Origin: an uncultured Planctomycetota bacterium
GTDB taxonomy: Bacteria; Planctomycetota; Planctomycetia; Gemmatales; Gemmataceae
Direction: 5' to 3'
Length of the DNA: 64,000 bases
Assembly (NCBI GenBank): GCA_963849325.1
Contig: CAWKHF010000006.1
Coordinates: 480,001 to 544,000 of the forward strand
The notes beneath the pieces were generated by a model, which made no database searches, was not told the origin of the DNA, and worked only from the letters and a program-made list of their open reading frames with translations. Below, in pieces: positions 20,501-56,575 of the stretch. The position numbers and the translations under genes are program-made. Position 1 is the first letter of the stretch, and each line of letters starts with the position of its first letter.

Positions 20501-20606
20501 GGCGAACGGCCGGCGTTAGCCGGCTGGTACTATGGCGAACGGCCGGCGTTAGCCGGCTGGTGGAGATCTTCTTACCAGCCGGCTAACGCCGGCCGTTCGC
20601 CATAGT
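20501..20606. repeat. REP-like cluster, family D: two direct plus one inverted copy of GGCGAACGGCCGGCGTTAGCCGGCTGGT
   Basis: Copies at 20501-20528, 20534-20561 and inverted 20574-20601, just past the cysC stop. Confidence 0.92.
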
Positions 20607-52081: not shown

Positions 52082-53556
<1,475 letters not shown>

Positions 53557-53748
53557 TACCTGGGAGGGATTGTAGCCCAGGCGAGGCACTACGGCCACCG
53601 ATCCATCGTCGCTCATGGAAGGACAAACCGGCGACGGGCCGGGATTTCGCTTGACAGAGAATCGCCCTGAGCTTGAGATAGCGCCGTTAGGGTGCGCCGG
53701 CACGCCGAAGCAGAGGCTTAGGCGCGCACCGGCGCGCCCGAAGAATGA

Positions 53749-54403
53749 GTTCGGCCGCAGAGATCCCGGGATGGCGATCCGCTATACGGTCTACTGCAAA
53801 CGCAGCGTCGCTGGTGTCGCGCCGGAGCAACTGCTCGCTGGCGTTCGATCGGCAGATTTGCACACGATTGCAGAAAATGATGAAATCTCCGACGATGCGA
53901 TCATCGATGCACTGGACCAATTGCGGATAGAGAACGTCGATCCGAGCGGCTTTCGCTGTTATCGTCTTTGCTACCGGCCGACTGGGAAACGGCAGGTCGA
54001 TGTCGAACGGTGGCAAACAGCCGACGAAGTTCGCGGCGTGGCGACCGAAGTGCTCGAAGGCCTGGAGGAGGAGGGACATCCGGCTTTGGAGCATATCCGA
54101 ACCCACCTCCAGCAAACCGTGGACATTGTCGATGCCTCCTTCGGTTCGTCGCCAGGCGAGCAAATGGCCCCGGTGCTGGCCTCGGAAGTGACGCGCTGGC
54201 TGGCGGAGAAATTCGATGGTATCATCCGGGCGGCCGATGGTACTTGGTGGGAGTTGGGATCGCGCCATCACGAGTATCAGCGCTTGCACTCGTAGGGGTG
54301 GTCGGGCCGAACCAGATGGTGCTGCCGCAGACCGATCGCGCGAATGAAGGCTTGTCGAGCTTCAGCGCTTCTCTCCGCGTGATCCGGTGGCAGAGTTGGA
54401 TCG
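53749..54403 (+). mobile_element. Integron-like gene cassette
   Basis: Starts at core GTTCGGC, carries one ORF, followed by the exact inverse core GCCGAAC and an attC-like fold. Confidence 0.7.
53771..54295 (+). CDS. Hypothetical acidic protein (cassette-borne, possibly immunity-like)
   Basis: 174 aa, lower GC, fills the cassette exactly. Confidence 0.75.
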   Translation: MAIRYTVYCKRSVAGVAPEQLLAGVRSADLHTIAENDEISDDAIIDALDQLRIENVDPSGFRCYRLCYRPTGKRQVDVERWQTADEVRGVATEVLEGLEEEGHPALEHIRTHLQQTVDIVDASFGSSPGEQMAPVLASEVTRWLAEKFDGIIRAADGTWWELGSRHHEYQRLHS

Positions 54404-54409
54404 TTCGGG
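54306..54409 (+). mobile_element. attC-like recombination site (104 bp)
   Basis: GCCGAAC ... GTTCGGG ends; CTGCCGC/GTGGCAG and GATCGCGCG/CGCGTGATC inner stems; starts 10 bp after the stop. Confidence 0.72.
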
Positions 54410-54734
54410 GATTCTCGTGCATAATGCCAGCGGACAAACCCCTCTGCAGATCGCGGAGTCAGGAGGCCGTCACTCCGGCTTTTTGCGACAGCGACGGGGC
54501 AAGACGCCTGACGAGCTACTTCGGGAAGGCCAAACCTTGCGCCAGCGCGCCGCCGAACACGCCGAGAAAATCAGGAACCGTGTTGGTTACAATAAGATCA
54601 GCGATGATCCCGTGATCCAAGCGCAGTCGGAGGCTGGTCGTACTCGGCATCTGCAAAAGGAGGTTGACAACTTCACCCAGCAGGCCGAAATCGTCGAGGA
54701 ACTCGCCCGCAGAAAGGCAGCAGGTGGACCATGA
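54403..54734 (+). pseudogene. Orphan polymorphic-toxin tip: Hint C-terminus (SGILVHN) plus ~102-aa putative toxin domain
   Basis: GILVHN matches the Hint/pretoxin-HINT terminal motif; no RBS-supported start; in-frame stop upstream at 54345. Confidence 0.65.
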
Positions 54735-54976
54735 ACGAGGCGCTATCTTGCATCGAGGATACCCTTCGGTCATTGCTCGACGAAGCCAAAGAGGCGCGGC
54801 AGGCAGCCATCGCGGGCCGTGGGTCTACGGGAGAAGGTTTCGTCGTCGGACGCGCGGAGGCGCTCACCGAAGTCCTTCACACGTGGTCCAATCAACTTCA
54901 AACATTCGGCCTTGCCGCTCCACTCAACGGCGTCTGGACGGAGTTGCGCGAGTTTCTCGCCCCTCAGGGTTACTGA
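54731..54976 (+). CDS. Putative immunity protein
   Basis: ATGA overlap with the toxin-tip ORF; 81 aa, helical, acidic. Confidence 0.6.
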   Translation: MNEALSCIEDTLRSLLDEAKEARQAAIAGRGSTGEGFVVGRAEALTEVLHTWSNQLQTFGLAAPLNGVWTELREFLAPQGY

Positions 54977-55106
54977 CTTGGGAGGGGCCAGGCCGAACGT
55001 CCGAATCGCCAGGGCCAGAGCGCGCATGTCGGCCACTCGTACAAGAAGTGTGTCATGAGGAAACTCGTTGGTTGCGTCGTGCGGCGCAGCCCGGCCGTGG
55101 ACCCGA

Positions 55107-56470
55107 TCAGTGGATCGCGGACTGACAGTCGTTGTACGTGCCGAGGAACAGTAGCAAGCGCACCTGGGCCTTGTTGTAGGCGCTGACGGCGGTCAGGTAG
55201 CTGGCGTGGGCCTGGGAGAGTTGCTGAATGCTGGCTAGGACCGCGGTATAGCTGTTGTTCCGCATCGACTCGCGGGGCGATTCGGACTCCAGGCGCAGGT
55301 TGGTGATGCGATAAGTCTCGGCGGCGTGCTCGATGGTGTTCGAGCCGCGCGTGATCTGTTCGCGTCCGCTGAGGGTGGCTGAGATCGCTTCCTCGACGCC
55401 GGCCTTCAGCTTGCCGCGTACATCGATCAGCGCCAGCTGGGCCTGTTGCAACTGGCTCTGGGCGATTTGCAATCGGCCGCACACCATGGCGGAGCCAGTG
55501 CAGTTGCACAGACGCTGAGCGCCCGCGCGTCGTCGAGTCCATGCTGGATCGACGCCGCCAGCCCTTGCAGCTCGCGCACACCCGGTCCATTGTCCATCGC
55601 CTGTTGCACCAAGGCGGCGGATGGGGCGGCGGCGTCCACGAGATCGATCGGCTCCAGCGCGGGAGCGGCCGGCGCCGGCCCGGCGTCGCTCAGGCCGAGA
55701 AGGTAAGCCAGCTTGGCGGCGGCGGCTTGACCTAACTGTCGTGCCCGAGCGCTGAATTGACGCCGGCCATTGAGGGCGGTCTGCGTGGCCTCGACCAGCA
55801 CCTGCGCCGGCTTCTCGCCCGACTCGATCAGGGCCCGCGAACGCTTGAGCAGCTTCTCCTCGTACTTCTCCAGGTCGCGGGCGACCGTCTCGCCGCGCAG
55901 GGCCGTCAGCCAGTCGAAGTAGGTGTTCGCCGCGTCTTGCAGGGCATCGAACTGCTTCTTGCTCAGCTCGGCGCGGCGCCGCCAGACTTGCGCCTCGGCG
56001 ACGGGCCGCTTGAACAGATCCTTGCGCAGCAACTCCGGCATGCACGATCGCAGCGCCGCATCCAGGGCGATCTGGCTCTCGTTGACGCGCTCCCGCGCCA
56101 GGAGGATCTCCGGGTTGCGCTCGCAGGTCAGACGCAGCACCGTATCGAGATTGAGTACCGGCCCGCTCGGGACGGTCGTGTCCTCGTCGCCGTCCTCTTC
56201 CTCTTGATGCGAGGCACGCACTAGGTCGGACGCCCTCGGCGCCTTCGCGCTTCGGCTCCAGGTGCCGCGCGCATAGGGGACGGACGTCAGGCTCAGCGGC
56301 GGGGTCAGCCCGCTGGACAACGGACCCGGCACGGGCGGCCCGTTCAAGGCGAGCCGGGACATGGGCAGGTTGCAGCCGACCGACAACAGGAGAGAGCCGG
56401 CAGCGCACCACGCCGCCAGGCACGGCAAACGGCGACATCGGGGCAAAAGGCGAAAGCGGAGGCGGGACAT
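55107..56470 (-). CDS. TolC/OEP-like outer membrane protein, probable lipoprotein (frameshift ~55500)
   Basis: LSVGC lipobox; LNLDTVLRLTCERNPEI; AANTYFD; AYNKAQVRL. Confidence 0.75.
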
Positions 56471-56575
56471 AAAACGAGTCTCCTGCAAGCTCGGATGAGC
56501 GGGTATAGCTGGCTCGCAGGTTACATCGGTTGCCCTCCTATCCGAACTTTGCCGATTGTGCCAAACGCTTGCCGT

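Follow-up and report, generated by a model that had tools for sequence, protein, structure and literature searches.

An integron attC crossover core at the start of an orphan polymorphic-toxin tip and immunity gene in a soil Gemmataceae genome

Can an integron take up the warhead of a polymorphic toxin together with the gene that neutralises it? The diversification of polymorphic toxin loci is attributed to homologous recombination at conserved pre-toxin blocks, and integrons shuffle promoterless cassettes by site-specific recombination; to our knowledge, the two kinds of shuffling have been compared before and the integrase was not implicated. The question is raised by a stretch of 64,000 nucleotides (nt), hereafter the window, from an uncultured Planctomycetota bacterium of the family Gemmataceae (assembly GCA_963849325.1, contig CAWKHF010000006.1, positions 480,001 to 544,000 of the forward strand), a soil bacterium whose genome of 8.16 Mb lies in 14 contigs with 65% G+C and 84.7% completeness. 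A sequence-only reading of the window had noticed a toxin tip preceded by the last residues of a Hint domain and followed by a candidate immunity gene, all directly behind an attC-like site, and had proposed that integron recombination swaps such warheads in frame. In our analysis, an orphan toxin-tip/immunity module was probably joined once, by IntI-type recombination, to a mini cassette array that lacks an integrase; this is one single event and not a warhead-swapping system. The elements concerned, in the coordinates of the window and with protein lengths in amino acids (aa), are as follows.

53624–53755, plus strand: repeat A, about 130 nt, the probable head (attI-like and/or promoter-bearing) of a mini array, with an R'-like core GTTCGGC at 53749–53755
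53771–54295, plus strand: cassette 1 gene with its ATG at 53771, encoding a 174-aa conserved hypothetical protein
54302–54413, plus strand: attC site B, with R'' GCCGAAC at 54306–54312, R' GTTCGGG at 54403–54409 and the crossover between G54403 and T54404
54402–54425, plus strand: last-strand remnant of a PT-HINT domain (RSGILVHN), the first codon of which is split by the attC crossover
54426–54734, plus strand: polymorphic-toxin C-terminal tip, 102 aa, predicted helical (the range includes the TGA stop)
54731–54976, plus strand: putative immunity gene of 81 aa, overlapping the end of the tip frame by ATGA
54988–55037, plus strand: possible vestige of the module's own attC, with an R''-like GCCGAAC at 54992–54998 and GTCGGCC at 55028–55034

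The first point to settle is whether site B is a genuine attC. Both cores lie where they had been reported, are complementary at six of seven bases and align to the core columns of the site family described below. Bare cores of this kind are as frequent as expected by chance, the genome containing 183 instances of CCGAAC-N40-140-GTTCGG (about 1.43 per 64 kb), and the single-stranded DNA folds no better than its shuffles (z −0.33, −0.76 and +0.79). These core statistics and folds had first suggested a chance motif, an explanation that was overturned by a DNA search of ten sister genomes, in which 54306–54411 matched several places per contig, spaced 0.5–1.3 kb apart, in two of them (G006 and G008). 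Against its own genome (G000), the element gave no match with blastn-short and weak copies with a more sensitive blastn search. A covariance model, R1, was built from 18 sites of the two IntI-carrying sister species, with two half copies dropped and the window's copy excluded, and it matched 54302–54413 (112 nt) over the full model length (1–108) with 76.8 bits and an E value of 7.6e-17, a score that is not fully independent, because the 18 sites had been found by BLAST with the window's element. The window copy aligned to R1 with four non-standard pairs, and the next-best R1 match within the window reached 16 bits. The family copies share the attC layout of GCCGAAC, spacer, bulged inner stem, variable centre and GTTCGGC, and their consensus fold comprises two helices with 19 pairs, in which 91.8% of the cells were paired versus 27–38% with slid partners; changes on both sides (compensatory) were seen at four of the 19 pairs. 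Judged by the R1 score and by the presence of the same family in arrays beside true intI genes in sister genomes, 54302–54413 is a genuine integron attC, a canonical site of an IntI integron family, and the reading of it as attC-like is thereby confirmed.

A genome-wide search with an attC covariance model had been proposed along with the original observation; carried out with the genus-family model R1, it gave 33 matches in the host genome. All 11 genomes of the genus contained R1 sites, with 51 in G006 and a range of 1–51 per genome across the ten sisters, and a further 33 matches were obtained in G441, a 10.4-Mb Planctomycetota metagenome-assembled genome (MAG). The matches are mostly singletons or pairs scattered over the chromosomes. 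True IntI (TIGR02249, cut-off 265 bits) was found in two of the 11 genus genomes, the host counted, namely G006 and G008, with scores of 432.8, 427.5 and 428.6 bits; on contig C380 of G006, a divergent IntI (427.5 bits) stands beside an attI-like GTTCGGCC junction and five attC sites. The cassettes of these sister integrons encode DUF1810, PIN, Uma2 and ParE-like proteins, among others. The study of one locus has in this way revealed a genus-wide attC family. As a separate observation, the next-best R1 match within the window, at 20530–20605 on the minus strand (E 0.11), has perfect GGCGAAC/GTTCGCC arms and a short inner stem, and may be either a short attC-like site or a chance hairpin.

The second point is where the toxin homology begins relative to this site. 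The codons CGT TCG GGG ATT CTC GTG CAT AAT at 54402–54425 do read RSGILVHN directly on the right core, within a frame that is open from 54348, after a TGA at 54345–54347, to the TGA at 54732–54734 (128 aa). The phmmer alignment of this frame to the PT-HINT protein P0001 (63% identity) begins at the R of RSGILVHN (54402), with S-C-G-V-L-V-H-N of P0001 aligning onto R-S-G-I-L-V-H-N of the window, and three proteins (P0001, P0012 and P0061) carry a PF07591 domain ending in (V/W)HN at the same spacing to a GG(R/K)H motif as in the window. A Hint-like "VAEL" just upstream of the core is conserved attC-family sequence rather than Hint, and therefore the Hint homology starts on the core itself. In agreement with the sequence-only reading, no further Hint sequence was recognised upstream, the frame opening only 18 codons before the tail in a stretch that is attC sequence. 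From the other side, the attC homology extends through 54409–54413, and the crossover falls between 54403 and 54404; the boundaries of the attC, as given by R1, and of the Hint/tip homology meet on the G/TT recombination core, so that the junction of the Hint-tailed module lies where it had been proposed to lie. The 5' end of the tip unit sits at the TT of the preceding attC's G/TT core, as it would for a mobile cassette, and the bases that follow the crossover, TTCGG, agree with TTCGGC, the consensus 5' end of cassettes in the genus. The retained part of the Hint domain amounts to its last 7–8 residues (21–24 nt), on which Pfam gives no PT-HINT match in the window frame, and no secretion, trafficking or filament part was found N-terminal to the tail in that frame. 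The statement that the tip has no credible start codon holds in that no clear start is present, but it was too strict in that GTG codons occur at 54387, inside the attC, and at 54417, where GTG encodes the V of VHN, 5 nt after GGGGA.

The domain behind the Hint tail had been described as a helical, histidine-containing domain of about 102 aa, and this description stands. AlphaFold2 gave a confident model (mean predicted local distance difference test, pLDDT, 93.5) with a helical hairpin and two short N-terminal helices, and the domain has the motif GG(R/K)H(A/S)GFL as well as a conserved H and K. Among 1.84 billion representatives, phmmer found 70 homologues of the 128-aa frame at E ≤ 1e-3, 14 of them at E ≤ 1e-10. 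Fourteen of the 15 sequences that were read are tip homologues, and the domain is C-terminal in all 14, P0004 being cut short within the domain; the remaining one, P0015, was set aside as a probably spurious match to an S1-repeat protein. In the Pfam scan of 30 longer homologues, PT-HINT stood directly before the domain in three (P0001, P0012 and P0061) and RHS/YD repeats were found in four, with S1 domains only in P0015 and no family above the curated cut-off in the other 22. Homologues of the tip thus lie C-terminal to Hint domains, or to RHS repeats, in other organisms, which for Hint is as the sequence-only reading would have it. No relative of the tip was found by sequence searches of Pfam, NCBIfam and PDB, Foldseek returned no match to the model at E ≤ 0.001, VIA-align returned generic helical hairpins only (best Z 8.1), and the Atlas search gave sub-threshold leads only, to a PT-HINT protein (0.77) and an Ntox47/Tox-HNH cluster (0.76). 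The tip is single-copy in the host genome and was not found in the 40 relatives searched. A phylum-wide profile is dominated by RHS-type N-terminal columns, to which its matches (64/401) mostly belong; at the tip positions (128–245), a full match was obtained only in the window and none in the 400 phylum genomes searched. Taken together, the tip is a predicted helical C-terminal domain of polymorphic toxins and a putative toxin, of a family that has so far not been described.

The same searches bear on the explanation that the Hint-like tail is a chance resemblance and that the two open reading frames (ORFs) form an unrelated two-gene cassette, for example an ordinary toxin–antitoxin pair. A tail of just 7–8 residues without a Pfam PT-HINT match in the window frame is what such a coincidence would leave, and the homologues P0002, P0004 and P0006 are short and carry no Hint tail. 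However, the spacing from (V/W)HN to GG(R/K)H is identical in three PT-HINT homologues, the best match (63% identity) aligns straight through the tail, and further homologues are RHS toxins that carry the domain at their very C-terminal end. We find this explanation scarcely credible.

The tip is followed by an ATGA-coupled 81-aa ORF at 54731–54976, as had been reported. It has 67 homologues, 66 at 62–90% identity and one at 55%, most of which are exactly 81 aa long. A locus search with this protein returned one genome, in the form of a MAG locus (L047), and two metagenome loci (L048 and L049). L048 and L049 repeat the end of the tip (..RRKAAGGP and ..QRKAAGGP), the ATGA overlap and the 81-aa gene, and both metagenome contigs begin inside the tip, their 5' junctions lying outside the contigs; in L047, all that is left of the tip before the immunity gene is a vestige of about 10 codons. 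Homology among the four module copies stops at the immunity stop codon. Against the two metagenome copies, the dN/dS ratio was 0.034 and 0.138 for the immunity gene and 0.16 and 0.085 for the tip, values by which both genes are under purifying selection. The complex model of the tip with the 81-aa protein scored 0.79, versus 0.33 for the best of three controls, and its runs agreed in at least 97% of the contacts with a partner pLDDT of at least 92. Of 80 solved complexes, 58 came up to that mark, as did 2 of 110 mismatched pairs, counts that are rough because our own alignments were used. This modelling supports binding between the tip and the 81-aa protein, and, as far as comparison of the copies can tell, the latter is a conserved, translationally coupled partner of the tip; the assignment of the ORF as the immunity gene is therefore upheld by its conservation beside the tip in L048 and L049 and by the predicted complex. 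Two neighbourhoods of related modules may be mentioned here: in L048 (503–900), the related immunity gene lies beside a putative macro-domain protein, and in L047 (6256–7129), the neighbours resemble a DUF433/PIN-type antitoxin–toxin pair, all of these names having been given from reading the translations.

Upstream of the module, cassette 1 is flanked by the GTTCGGC core of repeat A and by attC B. Its 174-aa protein matched no Pfam or NCBIfam family; 80 matching proteins were found, one of which is its own database entry, most of them 170–175 aa long, and the 79 others share 54–86% identity with it, one being named as a hypothetical protein of Zavarzinella formosa; together with the occurrence of the attC family in the Planctomycetota MAG G441, this name points to a planctomycete as the probable host. 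Repeat A occurs in 10 copies in the host genome at 75–89% identity, the others lying at C7:280711, C7:282086, C9:475268, C12:652970, C12:814976, C10:76198, C10:385092, C2:809217 and C4:229596. Each copy precedes a different small ORF, and the majority terminate in GTTCGGCGAAGGAGG, words that likewise come after attC sites in the sister integrons. Downstream of four of the 10, that of the window among them, an R1 attC (E < 1e-4) follows in the same orientation at a distance of 0.55–1.6 kb. At the end of the window's repeat A, a short R1 match to R'' and R' only was obtained at 53700–53759 (14.7 bits, E 0.0077 in 2.1 kb). An assignment of repeat A to an attC class was rejected, because no attC-like overall palindromic fold was found in it. 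The repeat contains TTGACA-N17-TGAGAT and a GC-rich hairpin, and a promoter scan of it yielded no consensus sigma-70 promoter. One possibility is that it serves mini cassette arrays as an attI-like or promoter head that does not depend on an integrase.

The surroundings of the island, compared over 52600–56500 of the window, are formed by the following features.

52082–53494, minus strand: thiC
53464–53561, minus strand: thiamine pyrophosphate (TPP) riboswitch upstream of thiC (46.9 bits, E 1.5e-7, below the Rfam gathering score of 54.3)
about 55107–56488, minus strand: outer-membrane efflux gene

No Rfam family besides the TPP riboswitch was found across the region. The adjacency of thiC and the efflux gene is unique to the host genome, the two being on different contigs or far apart in the sister genomes, and because they are not neighbours there, the island is placed, from this comparison of gene order, at a synteny break or rearrangement point. 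Among the sequencing runs listed for the region, none is of RNA, and in one soil-metagenome run, short contigs of low depth are identical to 54756–55074 and to other parts of the region, with no joints in the island.

How, then, did a toxin tip come to begin on an attC core? What is observed or computed comprises the attC, the homology of the Hint tail and tip, the place of the junction and the conserved pairing of toxin and immunity gene; beyond this, the course of events would be as follows. An IntI-type tyrosine recombinase, of the kind present in the sister species, would once have cut at a GTTCGG core that lay within the 3' end of a Hint toxin gene or adjacent to it, and this cut would have placed the warhead and immunity unit behind an attC; one IntI-type event is inferred because the attC crossover coincides with the start of the Hint/tip homology. 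The unit would either have moved as a cassette whose own attC later decayed or have been the target of a secondary-site insertion, and under either origin it is probably an immobile orphan today. Its value, if any, would most likely lie in immunity against the toxins of relatives or in a toxin–antitoxin-like addiction pair transcribed from upstream.

Several results weigh against this joining by an integrase. On the side of the attC, the element's own single-sequence fold is unremarkable (the z values of −0.33 and −0.76 above), covariation within the family is modest, and R1 was trained on sites retrieved with the window's element. On the side of the enzyme, the IntI search (TIGR02249) of the 84.7% complete host assembly gave a best score of 85.3 bits against the cut-off of 265, and the check for an IntI in this genome accordingly came out negative. 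The tip lacks a clear start codon or ribosome-binding site. At the 3' end, R1 gave only 5.6 bits on 54988–55037 (E 1.5 in 2.1 kb and 0.11 in 161 nt), with only the 5-bp GCCGA/TCGGC arms aligned, and no attC was found near the related modules, none following the immunity gene in L048 or L049. Finally, the junction is the sole one of its kind among the 146 attCs examined, and a one-off accident is inseparable from a mechanism at that number.

The 3' end also bears on the two possible origins of the unit, for each of which there are arguments. The sequence-only reading had pointed to a GCCGAAC at 54992 with a degenerate partner GTCGGCC at 55028; both are present, but the pair is not supported as an attC by the R1 score just given, and no other R1 match was found between the immunity gene and the efflux gene. 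The GCCGAAC box lies 16 nt past the immunity stop, and a stretch of 18 nt shares 78% identity with the beginning of attC B, which together may be a vestige of the module's own attC. On the one hand, a former cassette with a decayed attC is favoured because of the TTCGG consensus match, the GCCGAAC box and the recurring layout of repeat A, cassette and attC. On the other hand, a secondary-site insertion into a toxin gene is favoured because the 3' attC is missing and the related modules stand in ordinary contexts. Under the latter explanation, which had been offered as an alternative from the beginning, IntI would have inserted at least one cassette into a resident PT-HINT toxin gene, at a GTTCGG-like secondary site that lay seven codons short of the Hint end. 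The 5' part of that gene would later have been lost by rearrangement, and the tip/immunity unit itself would never have been a cassette. The module without a significant attC of its own, the L048 and L049 modules that precede ordinary genes instead of attCs, the synteny break at the locus and the frequency of GTTCGG (0.47 per kb) all fit this explanation, and insertion at secondary sites is a known origin of integrase-less attC clusters in the part of Cury et al. (2016, PMC4889954) drawn on here. However, no trace of a toxin 5' part was found upstream, where the left flank of cassette 1 is repeat A followed by the thiC riboswitch, and the layout of repeat A, cassette and attC recurs elsewhere without toxin genes. 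The five bases after the crossover fit the cassette consensus, the three extra ones being about a 1-in-30 match at a random GTT by our inference, and the GCCGAAC box lies where cassette attCs normally begin. We regard secondary-site insertion as a live rival, if on balance an unlikely one.

A stronger claim is that the stretch between 54404 and about 55030 represents a true cassette, either at present or until recently, freed by an IntI cut at a GTTCGG core in the last Hint strand. This is doubtful in our judgement. If it were true, integrons could carry warhead/immunity modules from one genome to another, a chimeric toxin could arise where such a module re-inserted at an in-phase core of a different Hint toxin, and with this locus integron recombination would for the first time be linked in nature to the diversification of polymorphic toxins.

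The furthest-reaching proposal was a standing integron-driven system, in which Hint-tailed warhead/immunity cassettes are exchanged in frame with full-length Hint toxins at the GTT core. Several observations agree with it: the junction is exactly on the crossover core with the Hint tail in frame with the tip, the host genome has full-length PT-HINT toxins and orphan fragments on contig C12, and the integrons of the sister species look active and use the same attC family. Such a system would be expected to leave many VHN fragments starting at attC cores in the same phase. When the DNA behind 29 of the 33 R1 matches of the host genome was translated, only that of the window entered an xHN-tailed open frame (0 of the 28 others), and no such frame was found behind 117 attCs of the ten sister genomes, which comprise 99 of the listed sites and 18 model members; the detector does recover the window's case. 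The tip, moreover, is single-copy and was met neither in the 40 relatives nor, at its own profile positions, in the 400 phylum genomes, and neither an IntI over the cut-off nor a 3' attC was found. As for a full-length Hint toxin with an in-phase GTT before VHN, the PT-HINT toxins of the host genome are all on C12, together with classical orphan fragments. In the main C12 toxin, the triplet GTT close to the end of the Hint domain forms one complete codon (GCC GTT GGA), which is another codon phase and would therefore join out of frame with TTCGGGG..., and at the two remaining Hint ends this position lacks a GTT. The C12 toxin array contains none of the attC matches listed for the host genome (29 of 33). 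Integron-driven warhead swapping in frame is not supported by these results, and a standing system of this kind seems very improbable; a single joining of the orphan module by IntI-type recombination accords better with our assessment.

The C12 locus deserves a description of its own. At C12:239000–251500 on the minus strand lies a classical polymorphic-toxin array, with very long alanine/aspartate/glutamine-rich proteins that have PT-HINT ends. These ends read ..LVHNNCGEG and ..AVWSHNTNGH and are followed by differing tips and small immunity-like ORFs. The array also contains a 216-aa orphan Hint-tip fragment and, at its end, an insertion sequence (IS)-type transposase-like ORF.

Orphan cdiA-CT/cdiI modules of contact-dependent inhibition (CDI) systems and orphan Rhs modules consist of a 3' toxin fragment with few pre-toxin codons and no start or delivery part, followed by an immunity gene; the classical ones directly follow the full-length gene and retain a stretch of homology sufficient for homologous recombination. 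The window module resembles them in being a start-less, delivery-less 3' toxin fragment with its cognate immunity gene, and the C12 locus holds classical examples behind its PT-HINT toxins. Unlike these, the window module is off the toxin contig and is bounded by a site-specific recombination core: the full-length PT-HINT genes are only on C12, the retained tail is of 21–24 nt, and the tip has no second copy.

Integrase-less attC clusters (CALIN) are defined by at least two attC sites with no intI nearby (Cury et al. 2016, PMC4889954). The window locus has one strong attC (76.8 bits) and the short 14.7-bit site at the end of repeat A. In the features given in the parts of that paper used here, it resembles sedentary chromosomal integrons and CALINs in its attC with R''/R' cores and a bulged inner stem, in the co-oriented promoterless ORFs between sites, in the occurrence of the same site family beside true IntI in sister species and in the 33 scattered attCs of a host genome lacking IntI. 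It differs from them in that it has one strong attC, in that its last unit lacks an attC of its own and begins inside coding sequence, at a Hint end, instead of with a leader and start codon, and in that the upstream partner is the dispersed repeat A instead of an attI beside intI. According to the portion of Anantharaman et al. (2013, PMC3710099) cited here, integron cassettes can carry toxin–antitoxin pairs, for example with RelE-type and HEPN toxins; the window has a comparable small two-gene unit of putative toxin and neutraliser in a cassette array, and sister cassettes carry PIN and ParE-like toxins. Unlike those pairs, the window tip belongs to a secreted-toxin warhead family of PT-HINT/RHS proteins, and the toxin comes first with ATGA coupling.

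Two further systems come close from the side of immunity genes. The rAID-1 system of Bacteroidales (Ross et al., bioRxiv 10.1101/471110), in the extract of the preprint considered here, gathers immunity genes against contact-dependent toxins into arrays that resemble integrons, with repetitive sites in the intergenic regions and with a tyrosine recombinase. It uses a XerD-like recombinase and its own repeats, whereas the window has a canonical attC of an IntI family in a planctomycete and also retains a complete toxin tip. In Vibrio cholerae, type VI secretion system (T6SS) arrays accumulate displaced immunity genes, and a likeness to integron cassette insertion was noted by the authors, who state in the passage concerned that there is no evidence for integrase involvement (Kirchberger et al. 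2017, PMC5361080). Unlike those arrays as described there, the junction in the window is itself the attC crossover core. Within the library that was searched, no paper linking pretoxin-HINT toxins to integrons was found, and of the seven that mention integrons, gene cassettes and polymorphic toxins, none combines all three in its title or abstract. What is new here is an integron attC junction with a polymorphic-toxin orphan module, together with tip and immunity families not described before, in a single instance.

The junction provides a concrete case of a warhead/immunity unit that has its start on the crossover core of an attC, by which two gene-shuffling systems are linked in a rare manner, and the locus is the basis for a toxin-tip family that had not been described, along with the 81-aa immunity family that belongs to it. 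With the IntI of the sister species, two questions become testable, namely the capture and mobilisation of such units and the preservation of immunity genes by integrase-less attCs.

A last observation concerns other attCs of the host genome. Those at C7:540342–540443, C5:713177–713283 and C5:67143–67242 are broken at one identical position of the right arm, and all three run into one common foreign sequence (..CTTCTATGATGCCAGGCCACTCGTCAAGAG..), which looks like a mobile element targeting attC sites. IS110-family elements are known to insert into attC, and the three broken sites are reminiscent of that.

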